Part shown: in pieces, positions 9,977 through 55,092 of the stretch
How positions within the stretch are numbered: the first letter of the stretch is position 1
How the letters are laid out: each line of letters begins with the position of its first letter
Origin: Clostridia bacterium
Lineage (GTDB): Bacteria > Bacillota > Clostridia > TANB77 > UBA1234
Reading direction: 5' to 3'
Length of the DNA: 64,000 bases
NCBI GenBank assembly: GCA_017462965.1
Contig: JAFTQC010000020.1
Location: forward strand, 990 to 64,989
The notes under the pieces: generated by a model
Database searches by the model: none
Told to the model about the DNA's origin: nothing
What the model saw: only the letters and a program-made list of their open reading frames with translations
Made by a program: the position numbers and the translations under genes

Positions 9977-10262
9977 CAAGAGGGACGCCCCTTTTTGAGA
10001 AAATTTTAATCAAGAGGGACACCCCTTTTTGAGAAATAAGATTTAGTGGAAATGTAGCTATTTTGTTCGCTTCAGCACTATCTATACAACAAAAAAATGT
10101 TGTTTTTTGGTATAGTCTTTATTCTTATTGCACCAAACATGCAATGAAAATATATTGTCAAAGCCCTGAAAACAATAGTTTTTTACATAACTCAAAAATC
10201 GTTTTCTCAAAAAGGGGTGTCCCTCTTGATGAAAATTTTCTCAAAAAGGGGCGTCCCTCTTG
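9977..10262. repeat. Composite REP/MITE-like element: two direct plus two inverted copies of CAAGAGGGACRCCCCTTTTTGAGAAA
   Basis: Copies at 9977 and 10011 (+) and about 10203-10228 and 10233-10262 (-). Confidence 0.85.
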
Positions 10263-48946: not shown

Positions 48947-49101
48947 TATTTAGGAAGACGTTGTGAGGTTTTAAGATGTTTTAGTGTTTGAGCCATAAAG
49001 AGATACTAATAAGAGAATAAAATAAGCTAAAACCTTTTGTCGTGACTTTAAAGCATAAAAAAAGATATGAGGTTGCACCCCATACCTTAAAAGAAAAAAT
49101 A

Positions 49102-49356
49102 TTACAGTTTACGCCCACACATTGGACAATACGAAATCGGTATTGTGTCATTCATGAAAACTTGATATTTTACATGATTGATTTCGTCGCGTGGTGATTC
49201 GTTCATAACAATATATTTCAACATGCTTCCTTTGTCTTTTGTGTGACGTATTTTGATTTCAACCTCTGTTAAAGGAACAAACGACGAGTCCTCGTCATAA
49301 AAACCGTTATGATAAAGGATTTCTCGTTTGTCAGTAGTTGTACAATATTTACACCT
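49102..49356 (-). pseudogene. 84-codon Zn-ribbon ORF (CKYC..YCPMCGRKL) with AGG at the expected start position
   Basis: Open frame 49356-49102; RBS AAGGAG 10 nt upstream of an AGG codon; first in-frame ATG is about halfway through the ORF. Confidence 0.5.
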
Positions 49357-49376
49357 TTGTGTTACACTCCTTTGTT

Positions 49377-49601
49377 TTATATTTCTTTGAGTATGTTGCC
49401 GTCTTCGTCTTTTATTATGAATTTGGCTTCATATTCACAATTCAAGACTCTTGCGATGTCTTGTAATTCATTTTCGGAAAAGTTGTCACGTTTCAGTTTG
49501 TTTGTTATGTTTTGAGGTTTAGTGCCTAAACGTTCCGCTAATTCAGTTATTGTGAGGTCTAATTCAAGTAATAAGTGTTTGATTTTTTTAGCCATTGGCA
49601 T
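49377..49601 (-). CDS. XRE-family HTH repressor
   Basis: LTITELAERLGTKPQNITNKLKRDNFSENELQDIARVL. Confidence 0.85.
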   Translation of the reverse strand: MPMAKKIKHLLLELDLTITELAERLGTKPQNITNKLKRDNFSENELQDIARVLNCEYEAKFIIKDEDGNILKEI

Positions 49602-49638
49602 AGATGCATCGCTCCTTTTTTATTGTATATCATAATAA

Positions 49639-49739
49639 TACACTAAAAAATGTAATTAGTCAAATAAAATCAAATATTAAAAACTAAAAAGTGTAAAAAT
49701 ATTATATTAAAGTGTTTACAAACTACACTAAATAGTGTA
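49639..49739. promoter_or_regulatory. Three operator-like palindromes TACACT-N4-AGTGTA between divergent genes
   Basis: 49639-49654 (1 mismatch), 49680-49695 (2 mismatches), 49724-49739 (perfect). Confidence 0.7.
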
Positions 49740-49786
49740 AAATAATAATAAAGAAAATGAAATAAAAACAAAGGAGTGTAAAAAGT

Positions 49787-50056
49787 ATGAAAAATAGTGA
49801 AGAGGGTCTAACTTGTTTAGATGTATTGGAGAACGTTGAAATGAATTTGTTAGTTGTTCAAGATTTAAGCAGAATCATGGTGGACAATTGCTTTTATGAT
49901 GACATTAACAACTTAAAAGAAACAAGCGCAAGAATAATGTTGAAAAAAGCTAAGACACTAACGTTTGCTATTAGCGAAATAATGGAAAAACAATTGCAAA
50001 TTATAAAAGATCGTATATGTAAAGAATATGAAGAGGGGAGCAATGAAAATGAATAA
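49787..50056 (+). CDS. Hypothetical protein
   Basis: 89-aa ORF with RBS AAGGAG. Confidence 0.6.
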   Translation: MKNSEEGLTCLDVLENVEMNLLVVQDLSRIMVDNCFYDDINNLKETSARIMLKKAKTLTFAISEIMEKQLQIIKDRICKEYEEGSNENE

Positions 50057-50294
50057 ATTACAAGTAGTATTTACAAAAGAAATGAAAGGAAAAAAAGCGT
50101 TGCTATATAGTCCAATAAATGGAGCCAAAAGAGATTATATGCTTTTAATGAATAGCAATGCAAGACTTACAAGAACTCGACAGTTAATAGAAAAAGTACG
50201 CAAAGAGATTCTAGAACGTGACAATGTAATAATAAAGGACACAGACATTATGTTTGTGCATGTGGATATGGATATGTCTTTTTGTAAAATATAA
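50049..50294 (+). CDS. Hypothetical protein
   Basis: ORF overlapping the upstream stop, RBS GAGGGG. Confidence 0.55.
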   Translation: MNKLQVVFTKEMKGKKALLYSPINGAKRDYMLLMNSNARLTRTRQLIEKVRKEILERDNVIIKDTDIMFVHVDMDMSFCKI

Positions 50295-50375
50295 AATTTT
50301 TAGAGAGTAACTGCACCCCCTGGGGTCTATTCAAATATAGGGGTGGGGTGGTATTAGAGAAAGGAAGCGCAAACA

Positions 50376-51563
50376 ATGGGAACAAGAAATTTTAACGGCG
50401 AGGGTACTTGCCATTATAGTAAAAAAAAGGGTGCATGGGTGGGACAGATAACAGTTCCAAGCACAGGGAAAAGAAAAACAGTTTGTACAATTAAAGGAGC
50501 AGAAACAGACAAGAAAGCCGAGAAAGAATGTAGAGCAAAAGTGCGTAAAGCGAATGAAGACGCAAAAAATGGAAGATACGCCAATAGTTCTACAGTAACT
50601 GTGTGCGAATTAGCAAAAGCAGTTATTGAGAGTGATTTTGCAGGTAGTTTTTTTCAAGCTGTTACATATACGCGAAAATTGAACACATTAAAGATAATTG
50701 AGAAAACATGTATAGGCAAAAAACAAGTGCGAAAAGTTAAAAGAGTTGATGTAATAGAAGCGTTGAATAGCATCACACATTATTCTAATTCAAATATAAC
50801 TAAAGTCGTACAAATGTTAGGAAAGACATTCAAGGAAGCATACTTACGTAAAATAATAATAGACAATCCGATGTATGAAATAAAAAAACCAAAATCAACA
50901 AGAGAAGACGACATTGTAATTGCATTTACACTTGAAGAACAAAAAATATTTGTAGAAGCACTCGAAAATGAAGAATACAAAAACATATTTTTGATTTGTT
51001 TGTTTTTAGGTTTGAGAATAGGTGAAACATTAGCGTTAAAAGTTGAAGACGTTGACTTTGAAAATAAAATATTGCATGTTTCAGACACTATTACTGAAAA
51101 CAAAGAATGCAAAACAATATTAAGAGATAAAAGGAAAACAAAAACGAAAGCGGGAAAAAGAGTTTTAGAACTTGACGACAAAACAATTGAGGTATTAAAA
51201 GAAAGTATCAAAAATATGCGTGTAAATAAAGACCATTTAATTTTTACATACTTCGACAAAAAAACACAAGAAATAAAGTTACACACAAATAATACAATGA
51301 ATAGTGTATTTCATAGAATATGCAAAAATGCAGGAATTAAAACCAAAAAAGAAGATAATCAAAAATTGACTGTACATTCTTTAAGGCACACTTATGCTAC
51401 AAGATGTTTAGAGGGTGGAATGCCTACACATGTTTTACAAAAGTTATTAGGACACACAGATATTGAAACAACAGTAAATACATACGTTAGTGTTACAAAA
51501 GAATACGAAAGCCAATATACAAAAAAGGTTTATGAATACCTAAAAGAAAAAAACATAATATAA
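50376..51563 (+). CDS. Tyrosine integrase
   Basis: RNFNGEG..WVGQI N-terminus; GLRIGE, HSLRHTY, LLGH, TVNTY. Confidence 0.92.
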   Translation: MGTRNFNGEGTCHYSKKKGAWVGQITVPSTGKRKTVCTIKGAETDKKAEKECRAKVRKANEDAKNGRYANSSTVTVCELAKAVIESDFAGSFFQAVTYTRKLNTLKIIEKTCIGKKQVRKVKRVDVIEALNSITHYSNSNITKVVQMLGKTFKEAYLRKIIIDNPMYEIKKPKSTREDDIVIAFTLEEQKIFVEALENEEYKNIFLICLFLGLRIGETLALKVEDVDFENKILHVSDTITENKECKTILRDKRKTKTKAGKRVLELDDKTIEVLKESIKNMRVNKDHLIFTYFDKKTQEIKLHTNNTMNSVFHRICKNAGIKTKKEDNQKLTVHSLRHTYATRCLEGGMPTHVLQKLLGHTDIETTVNTYVSVTKEYESQYTKKVYEYLKEKNII

Positions 51564-51651
51564 TCGAGAAAAGAAAAAGCTTGTATGTAATAGCCGACCA
51601 AAGCACACATACAAGCCCCACACAATCGACAAACGAGAGGAGAAAAAACAA

Positions 51652-51897
51652 ATGACAAAACTACAAAAAAGAAAAATCAAAGCATTATCAATTTTTATTT
51701 TGAAAGTTTTAACAATTATATTGATATTACAAGGTCTTATACACCTTTTGAAATATCCCGAAATATGTTCAACTACTCTTCGTCATCAATTGCATCAAGA
51801 TTTAACAAACAACGACGCAGACGCGTGGACATATTACGAGAATAATTACCTAGCGAGCGACATTGTGTTATTTCAAGATATTATTAGCTTAAGTTAA
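51652..51897 (+). CDS. Small hypothetical membrane protein
   Basis: RBS GAGGAG; one TM. Confidence 0.55.
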   Translation: MTKLQKRKIKALSIFILKVLTIILILQGLIHLLKYPEICSTTLRHQLHQDLTNNDADAWTYYENNYLASDIVLFQDIISLS

Positions 51898-51974
51898 AAA
51901 GAATGTAATGTCAATGATATTTTTATATAATAATGTGGTAGAATAAAAATGAATTGAAGTGAAGAGGTGATATC

Positions 51975-52664
51975 ATGGAAATAGAGGAAAAAAGAAGAAT
52001 TGAAGAGGGCAAAGAAAAGATAGCGTTTGAAGAAATAAAAGTAAAAAGTAAAATGAACGAAGAACTAAAAGAAGTAGAAAAAATGAATTTTAAAAAGAAA
52101 ACAGACAATGTATACATGGTTATTATGGAATCAATGTTTGTATTAGTAGCTCCATTTGTCATTTTATCGCTTTTGGTCGATGTTAATTGGGTGAATCTCA
52201 CACTTACATTTGCTTGTATTCTTTTATGGCTTGGAATATATACTGAAGAAAAAGCAATTGTGAAAGAGCAAGAAAGTCGAAAAGAACAAGAAAAAGAAAA
52301 TGTCCAAAAAAGTTATAGTGAAACACTAGAAAAGTTTAACGAAATGAAAAAAGAGTTTTTAACAGAAGAGGAAAAAGAAGCTATAAGACGAGAAGAAGCT
52401 GAAAAACAAAAGAAAGAGGAAGAAATACGAAGAGAAGAAGAAAAAAAACAAAGAGAAAAAATGCAACAAAAAATAGAAAAAGAACGAGAACGCGAAAGAA
52501 AAAGGAAAAAGTTTATTTCTACACTTGAAACAATCGGGGCAGTAGCGCGTGTGCTTAATATGATTCTAGATGTAGTACTCTGTATAGTATTTTTGCCTTT
52601 GGGATTGTTTGCTTGTTTTTTGACAGCAGTTGCGAGAAGCGACAACAAAACACATAGAAAATAG
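51975..52664 (+). CDS. Hypothetical membrane protein with charged coiled coil
   Basis: 2 TM, E/K/R-rich helix, then C-terminal TM; hairpin at about 52688-52711. Confidence 0.65.
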   Translation: MEIEEKRRIEEGKEKIAFEEIKVKSKMNEELKEVEKMNFKKKTDNVYMVIMESMFVLVAPFVILSLLVDVNWVNLTLTFACILLWLGIYTEEKAIVKEQESRKEQEKENVQKSYSETLEKFNEMKKEFLTEEEKEAIRREEAEKQKKEEEIRREEEKKQREKMQQKIEKERERERKRKKFISTLETIGAVARVLNMILDVVLCIVFLPLGLFACFLTAVARSDNKTHRK

Positions 52665-52924
52665 ACTGTTTTTATAAAGAATAATGAAGAGGGTAGCCAA
52701 AGACTATCCTCTTTTTATTGATATATTGAGAAAAAAGTATCATTAAACAATAAAAAAATGCATGCAATTTTCATGCAATTAAAAAGTATTTTGACGTATT
52801 TTAAAGTATTTCAAAATATGTTTAAGTATTTCAAAATATGTTTGAAAAATAAACAAAAACCTTAGTATAACTGCTTTTGCAATCACACCAAGGCTTCTAC
52901 GCTTTAACACATTTTTGTGCTTAA

Positions 52925-53000
52925 TGGTCGGGGTGAGAGGACTCGAACCTCCGGCCCCATGGTCCCAAACCACGTACTCTACCAACTGAGCCACACCCCG
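52925..53000 (-). tRNA. trnP: tRNA-Pro (TGG), integration target
   Basis: CGGGGTGTGGCTCAGTTGGTAGAG..CGTGG-TTTGGGA-CCATG..GGTTCGAGTCC..CCCCGACCA. Confidence 0.96.
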
Positions 53001-53170
53001 ATACAATTTGAAAGTATAACACGGTTTTTGAGGTTTGGCAATACAAAATTTAAATTTTTATATTTTTTATTTTTAAATTTTATGAAATGTCTGAAATTTC
53101 ACTAGTTTCAATAGAATTGTCAATTTCTTCTAAATCTTGAGATGAATTTTCGATATTTTTGTTATTTTCA

Positions 53171-54259
53171 TCATTTTCCCTCCTTCAAAATTTTATAAAC
53201 ACATTTATTTTGTTCTTGTTTCTCGAAGTTCCATGTATGGAAAGAGCCTCCTAGGCAGTAGTCCCAGTAATCACATTTTTGACAAGATTCACATGATGTT
53301 CGATTACTGTTTCTAAATTCTTTATATTTATTGTCCCAAACTTCTTTGAAATTATCTGTTTTGATGTTTCCTTGTACGTATTTTTTCATTCGTGGAACAT
53401 TTGGACAAACATATAAATCGCCGTTGTAAAGGATACTTGCAATGTTTATTCCAGTTCTGCAGAAGAATAAATATTTTCGAACATCATTTTCATACTTTAA
53501 TCCCAAAAAACTTGGGCATCCATACGAAATTTCTAATTTTCCTTTTTTATTTTTTTCGACTATGAAATCCAAAAGTTTTTCAAAATCTTGTTTATCAAGC
53601 ATAAGATCATCATGTTCCTTCGCTCTACCGATTGGATCTATTGATGCAACTCTCCAAGATGTTAAGTCAAGAGAGCACATAACTTCATAAATTTCGTTTA
53701 GTTGATGGATATTGCTTTTGTTAAAAACAGTGGTAACTTGCAGATGTTTTACAAAATTTGCTTTGCGTAAACTTTTTATATTTTCAATAATTTTTTTGTA
53801 TGAACCTGGTACACCTCTAAATTCGTCATGCGTATCTTTTAATCCGTCGATACTAATTGAAATTGTCTCCATTCCGGCACGTTTTAAACTTTCGATATTT
53901 TCGGAATTTAGTAAAATTCCGTTTGTAGTCATACCCCAATGAAAACCAAGACTCACAGCATATTCCATAACTTCAAATAAATCTTTACGAACAAGAGGTT
54001 CGCCACCTGTTACATTTATAAGAATTTTGCTTGCATCAAAATCATCTGCTATTTGTTTGAATCCAGCCTTTATTTCGTTGGTAGTAAGTTCATCAGGATA
54101 ATTTTTTGTTTCGGCGGAACTTCCACAGTGCTTACATTTGGCATTACAATTTAAAGTGGTTTCCCAAAACAAATCAATAAGATGATGTTCTTGATATTCT
54201 TTTTCTTTATATTGTTTCAAAAGTTCAAATTTTCCTAATTTATAAATCTCTTTAAACAT
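53171..54259 (-). CDS. Radical SAM/SPASM protein
   Basis: LFWETTLNCNAKCKHCGS (CxxxCxxC), TGGEPL, SIDG..HDEFRG, CRTG..YVC..CESCQKC..CLGG; RBS AGGAG before ATG 54259. Confidence 0.92.
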   Translation of the reverse strand: MFKEIYKLGKFELLKQYKEKEYQEHHLIDLFWETTLNCNAKCKHCGSSAETKNYPDELTTNEIKAGFKQIADDFDASKILINVTGGEPLVRKDLFEVMEYAVSLGFHWGMTTNGILLNSENIESLKRAGMETISISIDGLKDTHDEFRGVPGSYKKIIENIKSLRKANFVKHLQVTTVFNKSNIHQLNEIYEVMCSLDLTSWRVASIDPIGRAKEHDDLMLDKQDFEKLLDFIVEKNKKGKLEISYGCPSFLGLKYENDVRKYLFFCRTGINIASILYNGDLYVCPNVPRMKKYVQGNIKTDNFKEVWDNKYKEFRNSNRTSCESCQKCDYWDYCLGGSFHTWNFEKQEQNKCVYKILKEGK

Positions 54260-54316
54260 AGTTAGCTCCTTATATAAGTAGTTAAATTCATTATATAAAA
54301 GCAGCAACAAGAGTTG

Positions 54317-54403
54317 CAAGAGGGACGCCCCTTTTTGAGAAAATTTTCTCAAAAAGGGGCGTCCCTCTTGATAAGTTTTTTGCAAAAAGGGCTGTCCCTC
54401 TTG
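54317..54403. repeat. REP-like palindrome plus extra half copy (CAAGAGGGACGCCCC family)
   Basis: Palindrome 54317-54370, additional inverted half at about 54380-54403. Confidence 0.88.
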
Positions 54404-54461
54404 CTAATTTTGAAATATAATATTGATGGATACGTGCATGAAAAGAGGAGAGGTGATTTTT

Positions 54462-54674
54462 ATGGAAAAATTATCGAGTGAAGTTATAATGAATCCTATA
54501 GAGGTGGTTCCAATGTATGGAGTACAACCACCTATTGAGAAAGAAAAAACAGTTGGAATTCTTGTTGCAGCTGTAACGGGAGTTGTTATTGTTGCTGTGG
54601 GAATAGTTGCTTTCATAAAAAGAAAAAATAAAAAGAAAAAGGGAGAGATTTCAAATGAAGAGATTAAAAAATAA
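54462..54674 (+). CDS. 70-aa membrane-anchored peptide with PMYGVQP motif
   Basis: Strong RBS GAGGAGAGGTG; MEKLSSEVIMNPIEVVPMYGVQPP, then TM, then KRKNKKKK. Confidence 0.7.
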   Translation: MEKLSSEVIMNPIEVVPMYGVQPPIEKEKTVGILVAAVTGVVIVAVGIVAFIKRKNKKKKGEISNEEIKK

Positions 54675-55092
54675 TTCAGGTATTTCAATAACAACACTTG
54701 TTATAACGATAGTTGTAATGCTTATTATCGCTGGTATAGCTGTTGGAACGTCAACGGAGATAATTGATGATTCTGTTGATGCGAAAAAAGAAGCTGCAAT
54801 TTTTGAAGATAATGAAGAAATTCGTGCATTATTAATGAATGCAATTACTGATAAAAGTGTTATAACAGGTTTTGCTTTAGTTGATGGATCGATTGAAGTT
54901 GTTGATGAAGAAGGTAATGAGTATGGAACTAATTATTATCTAATCCCTGGTGGAGATGAAGAAGATTTAGCTGCAATTAGGGAAAAGACAGGAGATGCTA
55001 GTGCTAGTGCATATAAAGGAATAACAGCTCCTTATGTTGTAGATTATTATACTGGAAAATATCATAGAATTGAGGATGTTAAGTTTAAATAA
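54655..55092 (+). CDS. Type IV pilin-like protein
   Basis: MKRLKNNSG-ISITTLVITIVVMLIIAGIAV class III-like signal peptide. Confidence 0.7.
   Translation: MKRLKNNSGISITTLVITIVVMLIIAGIAVGTSTEIIDDSVDAKKEAAIFEDNEEIRALLMNAITDKSVITGFALVDGSIEVVDEEGNEYGTNYYLIPGGDEEDLAAIREKTGDASASAYKGITAPYVVDYYTGKYHRIEDVKFK

Follow-up and report, generated by a model that had tools for sequence, protein, structure and literature searches.

Which peptide does the radical S-adenosylmethionine (rSAM)/SPASM enzyme of this locus act on, and what does it do to it? The locus lies on contig JAFTQC010000020.1 of a gut Clostridia bacterium (assembly GCA_017462965.1), of which a stretch of 64,000 nucleotides (nt), positions 990 to 64,989 of the forward strand, was analyzed and is called here the window; positions below are counted from its first letter. 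The enzyme gene is transcribed divergently from an open reading frame (ORF) for a 70-amino-acid (aa) membrane peptide with a Tyr-Gly (YG) motif. In the reading that we favor, the enzyme is a cytoplasmic maturase that modifies the x-Tyr-Gly-x-Pro site of the divergent peptide, most likely by excision of tyramine, and we give this reading as a whole a probability of roughly 0.45. Judged from the sequence comparisons described below, the 70-aa peptide is in all likelihood the substrate of the enzyme, the M18-Y19-G20 tripeptide very probably being its target; tyramine splicing, argued by analogy, would have about an even chance once the pairing is granted.

The first-pass annotation of the window described an intact CxxxCxxC-plus-SPASM enzyme diverging from a 70-aa ORF with a strong ribosome-binding site (RBS), an acidic N-terminus containing VVPMYGVQPP, one transmembrane (TM) segment and a polybasic tail. 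All these elements were recovered, with both gene starts corrected. For the enzyme, the automated ORF list gives a 404-aa frame with a TTG start (53171..54385), a longer start used by no orthologue; since all orthologues begin at an internal ATG (position 54259, MFKEIYKLGK), located 7 nt past AAGGAG, the gene is assigned 362 aa. Its Pfam matches are Radical_SAM (2e-26) and SPASM (4.6e-11), and the cysteines of the SPASM pattern (C248, C267, C285, C326, C329, C335, C353), as well as the [4Fe-4S] cluster motif C38-N-A-K-C42-K-H-C45, are invariant in 32 orthologues. The enzyme has no RRE domain, and just about 30 residues, with a predicted helix at residues 2-24, precede the cluster motif. The AlphaFold2 model of the enzyme has a predicted local distance difference test score (pLDDT) of 92.9, and its best PDB matches in Foldseek are the peptide-modifying SPASM enzymes SkfB, SuiB, anSME and CteB, with PqqE also near. 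In PDB, CteB is the top sequence match and SkfB the top structural one, both similar only generically, and the PDB searches returned no solved splicease structure for comparison.

The peptide starts with the ATG at 54462 rather than 54463, preceded by AGGAGAGGTGA, a strong RBS, and reads MEKLSSEVIMNPIEVVPMYGVQPPIEKEK, followed by the TM helix and then by KRKNKKKKGEISNEEIKK. Residues 1-30 form an acidic head (net charge -2) that includes the motif, and the distance from YG to the start of the TM helix is 13 residues, the family range being 12-32. There is no Cys anywhere in the peptide, and it has neither an N-terminal signal peptide nor a lipobox; from the positive-inside rule we infer an N-out/C-in topology. 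It could be argued that such a short ORF is not a gene and that its motif is due to chance, as it has no TIGR04134 match at E <= 0.1 and nothing significant in NCBIfam or Pfam. We regard this as very improbable, given the strong RBS, the independent gene callers of public assemblies that predict the identical 70-aa protein (P0121), and the conservation of the frame, the TM helix and the basic tail in six lineages at 32-78% identity. Moreover, the strict motif YG[VIPML]x0-2P is present in only 4 of 1220 (0.3%) small hydrophobic six-frame ORFs of the window genome, compared to 59 of the 78 enzymes of the orthologous loci considered next, beside which it is found.

Eighty loci with orthologues of the enzyme were taken from one-genome-per-species contigs, and the 78 with a full enzyme ORF were counted. 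Most of them belong to uncultured Clostridia of the gut or rumen, and a few are labelled as candidate phyla radiation (CPR) or other phyla; their enzymes are 54-94% identical. With a simple filter for small hydrophobic ORFs, 72 of the 78 loci show YG in ORFs for small membrane proteins or lipoproteins next to the enzyme, from one to three per locus, so that the neighbourhood check suggested along with the first-pass annotation came out in its favor. Among the six exceptions, the partner carries Y-A in place of Y-G in L063 (LYAPA), L089 and L092 (both MYAVDP); L060 has an LYAPP partner and a YG ORF without a TM segment, dropped by the filter; L050 has a PMYGVPDP partner, dropped by the overlap filter; and L055 has a truncated partner ORF only. 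The partner ORF of L090 is also merely a truncated one, yet the filter scored this locus as positive. The YG density is 0.79 per 100 aa in the neighbours of the enzyme vs 0.23 in other ORFs of the same loci. A conserved third small gene, that is, a candidate Y/RRE-like protein, was not seen in the orthologous loci.

A typical partner begins with a Lys-rich, signal-peptide-like N-terminus ending with KVFA or KIYA. This is followed by x-Y-G-[V/P/I]-P sites, between one and four in number, by a TM helix that starts 12-32 residues after the site, and by KKSKSSKKKK, in many cases with another TM helix behind it. Some partners are lipoproteins (e.g., ..LLSGC..AVYGVPA). Across the wider Clostridial clade, partners are normally predicted to be membrane proteins that combine a signal-peptide-like N-terminus and YG motif(s) with one or two TM helices. 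The partners match no significant NCBIfam or Pfam family, and their sequences have diverged nearly past alignment save the motif and the anchor. Y and G are the sole fixed residues in 134 unique sites. At -1, L is found in 65 of them and A, V, E, D, K or M in the rest; V, P or I stands at +2, and 60 sites have P at +3. The resulting family consensus is [P/A/T]-[L/M/A/V]-Y-G-[V/P/I]-P, with which the motif of the window peptide agrees. In the partner at L049:1516-1845, ALYDVPTP is N-terminal, and the basic stretch is followed by RLYGPPRQ and VLYGPPRK; because the motifs lie on both sides of its TM helix, at least some sites may stay cytoplasmic.

The divergent peptide itself is syntenic in six lineages. 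The motif is intact in the window (PMYGVQPP), in P0122, known from six metagenome contigs (PLYGPQPP), and in G016 (CLYGVPEP); G013 has the same CLYGVPEP, with a frameshift in the A-run before the TM helix; in G009 the motif is ELYGPP, and the contig stops short of the enzyme position; and in G019, the nearest sequenced relative (enzyme 94% identical), Y-C replaces Y-G (PSYCVQPP). Hence Y-G is kept in five of the six lineages, including the frameshifted one, while the flanking residues diverge, which bears out the expectation, raised in the first pass, that the motif should be conserved among homologues of the peptide. In the alignment of the divergent peptides the Tyr, two prolines and the basic tail are invariant. 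No peptide is present wherever an enzyme-less locus could be viewed. In particular, tRNA-Pro of G020 is immediately adjoined by the pilin-like gene and TtcA, and the peptide, the enzyme and the lipoprotein described below are missing together, which suggests that the three genes are gained and lost as one module. Decay was seen in relatives as well: the enzyme orthologue of G007 (L010, G007:C9) has three in-frame TAA stops next to an intact YG partner, possibly an assembly error, which could also account for the peptide frameshift in G013 (L023).

In relatives (G019, G016, G013 and the P0122 contigs) the enzyme gene is directly followed by a gene for a 74-80-aa lipoprotein with one or two [LM]YGVP sites (MKKILRF..LFGITAC..ALYGVPS). 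The window copy has lost about 136 nt compared to them, including the start codon, the signal peptide, the lipobox and the YG motif, so that the acidic 3' tail alone persists, and a 14-codon out-of-frame ORF now begins at the former lipoprotein RBS. A 68.6-kb ENA contig, which may or may not come from the same sample, is identical over 3.2 kb, the deletion included. The first-pass annotation had proposed a Clostridial version of the system with YG on a TM-tethered peptide rather than on a lipoprotein. The tethering holds for the window, but no replacement took place in the lineage: close relatives carry both partners, and the window lost its lipoprotein by deletion. As the lipoprotein is deleted and a scan of the whole genome gave just spurious or intramembrane matches elsewhere, none of them a credible small membrane ORF with the motif, the genome is left with the 70-aa peptide as its sole credible candidate substrate.

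The deletion can also be read in another way, namely, that the enzyme was orphaned by the loss of its true lipoprotein substrate, and that the peptide, decaying or unrelated, is retained chiefly for the sake of its 3' end, which holds the RBS and the start of the pilin-like gene. The conserved C-terminal GEISNEEIKK of the peptide indeed overlaps the start region of that gene, the N-terminal segment typical of partners is missing, and decay of the peptide is compatible with an intact lipoprotein, as seen from S-Y-C in the relative with the 94%-identical enzyme and from the frameshift in G013. Still, we consider this explanation improbable. The enzyme is intact with every catalytic Cys present, the peptide retains the consensus P-M-Y-G-V-x-P-P at the family-typical spacing to the TM helix, and neither the retention of Y-G across lineages nor the lack of the peptide at enzyme-less loci agrees with it. 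Moreover, the state of the two partners in four close genomes looks complementary: the lipoprotein is intact and the peptide has Y-C in G019, the lipoprotein is intact and the peptide frameshifted in G013, both are intact in G016, and the window has the peptide only, with at least one intact YG partner kept in each genome examined. Such a pattern would be expected from redundancy between two substrates of one enzyme, four genomes being too few for proof.

Beyond the close orthologues, the motif is found in further protein contexts. Among the 50%-identity representatives, three ORFs encode the enzyme and YG segments in one chain. In P0158 (L131:100-1449), known from just one 1.5-kb contig and thus possibly an assembly or frameshift artefact, three V-Y-G sites precede the enzyme; the C-terminal segments are TLYGPPP, between zinc ribbons, in P0154 and VIYGPPE in P0161. 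At least 11 clusters have a C-terminal JAMM-like extension (HxH..S..D; weak Prok-JAB match, E 0.0013), and in sister-clade enzymes of 43-46% identity (L132:77-2173, L133:2457-4632) the JAMM/MPN+-like C-terminal extension spans about 200 aa. At two of the JAMM-like fusion loci, upstream soluble partners of 148-183 aa carry C-L-Y-G-C-P approximately 25-35 residues from the C-terminus, which suggests that this clade represents a putative protease-coupled version of the same system. Tyr-Gly tracks the enzyme in membrane-anchored, lipidated, soluble and fused contexts, and this is therefore strong comparative evidence for Tyr-Gly as the target.

As for the chemistry, the closest analogy is provided by spliceases, rSAM/SPASM enzymes that act on XYG (PMC11414181, PMC9811515), many of whose pathways are binary and lack an RRE protein (PMC11414181). 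The native tags for splicing are PIRPLYGLPI and AVAAMYGVVFPG, with MYG and LYG among the native sites (PMC10533398, PMC11626197). Both the family consensus and P-M-Y-G-V-Q-P-P of the window peptide fit well with this context, as far as sequence resemblance goes. By this analogy, the maturase would act on M18-Y19-G20 in the short N-terminal tail of the peptide before or during membrane insertion, after which the modified tail would be outside and the Lys-rich tail inside. The reaction would excise a tyramine equivalent (C8H9NO, -135.07 Da) and leave the residue-X carbonyl bonded to the carbonyl that had belonged to Tyr, the product here being an electrophilic alpha-keto-beta-methionine amide. 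Spliced products inhibit Ser/Cys proteases (PMC11626197), and a surface-tethered ketoamide might, by the same analogy with spliceotides, inhibit or trap such proteases at the cell surface.

The same enzyme, substrate and site are also compatible with other radical chemistry: the Tyr could be cross-linked (e.g., through its ring to the +2 beta-carbon, giving a three-residue cyclophane) or bonded via C-O or C-C to the Pro or Val beside it, Tyr or Gly could be epimerised or dehydrogenated, or the Tyr side chain could be cleaved with the backbone intact. This is the main alternative, somewhat less probable than splicing. In its favor, the structural neighbours SkfB, SuiB, CteB, anSME and PqqE are cross-linking or oxidising maturases, the profile scores are nearer to SPASM enzymes of the AhbD, NirJ and MftC types than to the PlpX model, and the conservation of positions +2 (V/P/I) and +3 (P) could be explained by a Tyr-to-(+2) cross-link. 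On the other hand, a near-invariant Gly after Tyr combined with free choice at -1 is a hallmark of splice sites (PMC9811515, PMC10533398), and a cyclophane-type maturase family is absent among the 25 best NCBIfam matches listed. This combination is not known as a feature of cyclophane motifs.

Several further observations weigh against tyramine splicing of the window peptide. With the PlpX-type model TIGR04103 the enzyme scores 125 bits vs the 725-bit cutoff, and it is no nearer to this model than to several other SPASM families. Partners that are otherwise intact have Y-A, Y-C or Y-D variants, which also speak for other chemistry and which a splicease may not tolerate. In the AlphaFold2 model of the P0158 fusion, the extension has pLDDT 30-57, and no YG motif is docked confidently. 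The 78 loci are phylogenetically related, so the counts overstate their independence, and a binomial P value computed from the motif counts takes no account of this and is not to be taken as a probability. Finally, the window peptide has no signal-peptide-like N-terminal segment of the kind typical of most partners, and if this segment is a recognition or activating helix, the peptide may be a poor substrate.

The placement of the enzyme among known families was analyzed using NCBIfam profiles. The resemblance to TIGR04133, stated in the first-pass annotation, stands insofar as this is the top match (330.8 bits, E 8.1e-99; enzyme residues 11-354 vs profile positions 7-345 of 350), but the score does not reach the curated cutoff of 425 bits. 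The next scores are those of AhbD (189 bits), TIGR04053 (180), NirJ2 (165) and MftC (151). Relatives at 39-48% identity score 266-391 bits against TIGR04133, and a profile search of 300 sampled Clostridia genomes gave seven with a match at E <= 1e-60 and none above the cutoff, which is exceeded by the Bacteroides thetaiotaomicron control. As the relatives are likewise below the cutoff, the enzyme is assigned to a TIGR04133-like superfamily, of which the curated model covers only the Bacteroidota core. This family is large overall and patchy in Clostridia: a word-indexed search found 2054 protein clusters (90% identity) at E <= 0.001 among 4895 candidates, the best 120 being 67-92% identical, and 456 clusters (50% identity) reached E <= 1e-30 in an exhaustive search. 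Full-text literature searches on TIGR04133 and TIGR04134 returned no relevant paper, and no functional test of the family was found.

The features of the region are collected in the table.

Table. Features of the rSAM/SPASM locus and of its surroundings, in window positions
Feature	Position	Strand	Basis or remark
tRNA-Pro(tgg)	52925-53000	-	left edge of region
Lipoprotein gene remnant, 91 nt	53080-53170	-	directly downstream of enzyme gene; DNA alignment with G019, G016, G013
rSAM/SPASM enzyme gene, 362 aa, TIGR04133-like	53171-54259	-	NCBIfam and Pfam profiles, orthologue starts
SPASM region, residues 248-353, seven invariant Cys for auxiliary clusters	53201-53518	-	Pfam SPASM and invariant columns
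Radical SAM [4Fe-4S] motif codons, C38 to C45	54125-54148	-	read from sequence; invariant in 32 orthologues
Divergent intergenic region, 203 nt			between enzyme gene and 70-aa ORF
REP-like palindrome, 21-nt arms CAAGAGGGACGCCCCTTTTTG and reverse complement, plus third arm	54317-54403	none	inside divergent intergenic region
70-aa candidate substrate ORF	54462-54674	+	sequence; public gene calls; syntenic homologues
Motif V15-V-P-M18-Y19-G20-V-Q-P-P24	54504-54533	+	agrees with family consensus from 134 unique sites
Predicted modification site M18-Y19-G20	54513-54521	+	
TM helix (residues 31-53) and polybasic stop-transfer KRKNKKKK (residues 54-61)	54552-54644	+	read from sequence
145-aa gene, pilin-like N-terminus	54655-55092	+	shares 20 nt with 3' end of 70-aa ORF
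TtcA-like PP-loop gene			after pilin-like gene

Two neighbouring elements were considered as possible members of the system and rejected. The first one is the palindrome in the divergent intergenic region, resembling repetitive extragenic palindromic (REP) elements and consisting of a 54-nt perfect palindrome and a third arm. It was ruled out as a system-specific regulatory element, being a genome-wide repeat: about 240 arms (<=3 mismatches) are scattered across the 2.07-Mb genome, the arm and its reverse complement being spaced by about 13 nt and at times repeated in tandem, and Rfam gave sub-threshold generic hairpin matches only. Further arms in the window start at 9977, 10011, 20867, 32191 and 60116, and in the related contig L126 this intergenic site is occupied by another, larger palindromic insert. 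The second element is the pilin-like gene, whose overlap with the 3' end of the 70-aa ORF had been correctly noted in the first pass. It was ruled out since its orthologues are found with TtcA, without the peptide or the enzyme, in G020, G007, G015 and G021. The pilin-like protein has its own conserved N/E-Y-G-T-G, which differs from the x-Y-G-[VPI]-P type, and no Pfam or NCBIfam family was matched by such proteins. Their N-terminus, K-N-x-G-[IFV]-S-[ILM]-x-x-[LV]-[VA]-I-T-I-[IV]-V, is common to dozens of proteins in the genus, including 2700-3100-aa frames.

On the other side of tRNA-Pro, the region 48981-52700 of the window contains a tyrosine-recombinase gene (50376-51563) and small phage/plasmid-like ORFs. 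The cargo at the same tRNA differs in relatives (TnpV and RepA_N genes in L126-L128), and so the tRNA appears to be an integration hotspot bordering the module.

If the favored reading holds, short peptides would be displayed on the outer face of the membrane via a TM helix or a lipid anchor, each with an alpha-ketoamide warhead, and such a coat could serve as a covalent-reversible trap or inhibitor of host, dietary or phage-associated Ser/Cys proteases. Splicing would mean backbone beta-amino-acid ketoamides on surface-anchored proteins of common gut anaerobes, extending spliceotide biology from secreted inhibitors to the chemistry of the cell envelope, and would make compact enzyme/tag pairs available to protein engineering, with an enzyme of 362 aa that lacks an RRE and a context of about 10-30 residues for recognition. 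If the reaction is not splicing, it would be a new Tyr-Gly-directed radical modification. The broader proposition, that Clostridia of the gut and rumen, and with them the wider TIGR04133-like superfamily, make cell-bound rather than diffusible products by tyramine splicing or perform a wholly new radical reaction on Tyr-Gly, is rather doubtful at present. For either chemistry the window locus is a minimal natural test case, with one enzyme, one short substrate candidate, and the paralogous candidate deleted.

Comparison with known systems starts with the TIGR04133/TIGR04134 pair (rSAM_w_lipo and lipo_with_rSAM), hypothetical equivalogs of NCBIfam from Bacteroidota (e.g., Bacteroides thetaiotaomicron), which has the same gene logic of an enzyme beside small exported YG-x-P proteins. 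The window enzyme likewise combines CxxxCxxC with a C-terminal SPASM region and has its best match with this family over the full length, and close relatives of the window genome also carry a true lipoprotein directly downstream. It differs, however, in scoring below the cutoff, and its partner is a divergently transcribed bitopic peptide with no signal peptide, lipobox or TIGR04134 match. The adjacent lipoprotein of the TIGR04134 type is reduced in the window to a deletion remnant, and in relatives it is also sub-cutoff: that of one close relative has a weak match (E 0.033, 14.2 bits vs the 39.8-bit cutoff).

MftC and AhbD/NirJ follow among the next-best SPASM scores (151-189 bits). MftC, the mycofactocin maturase, also modifies a Tyr adjacent to Gly-Val (C-terminal G-V-Y) and requires the C-terminal Tyr carboxylate and an RRE partner, and AhbD and NirJ act on tetrapyrroles. 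They differ from the window system in having no YG-motif membrane partners. In triceptides (three-residue cyclophanes), an aromatic-x-x motif is cross-linked by a dedicated rSAM/SPASM family, and no such family is among the 25 best NCBIfam matches listed.

Spliceases (PlpX/PlpY-PlpA, PcpXY and the binary RhaX, RasX and RcsX; TIGR04103) are likewise rSAM/SPASM enzymes with an adjacent X-Tyr-Gly substrate. Their native contexts P-L-Y-G-L-P and A-M-Y-G-V-V are similar to the one described here, and the two-gene binary layout without RRE is shared (PMC11414181, PMC10533398, PMC11626197); multi-site substrates also occur in relatives of the window system. For the Plp, Pcp and Rha systems, complexes of enzyme and peptide have been predicted (PMC11414181). 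In contrast to them, the window enzyme is far under the TIGR04103 (IPR026482) cutoff, there is no leader of the Nif11 or NHLP type, and the substrates, membrane-anchored or lipidated, apparently stay on the cell, whereas splicease peptides are leader-cleaved and diffusible. The role of the activating helix, played in spliceases by an RRE-like Y protein or by the substrate leader, could be fulfilled in most partners by the conserved N-terminal segment, the window peptide being without it. Reportedly, 27 splicease systems were tested and 939 predicted by Scott et al. in 2022 (Chem 8:2659), and a part of the present system may already be covered there. Thus, spliceotides are known, and the TIGR04133/TIGR04134 pairing is catalogued, though uncharacterised; what differs here is a Clostridial subfamily under the model cutoff, with TM-anchored partners rather than TIGR04134 lipoproteins, and, in the window, a system reduced to one enzyme and one leaderless 70-aa bitopic peptide.

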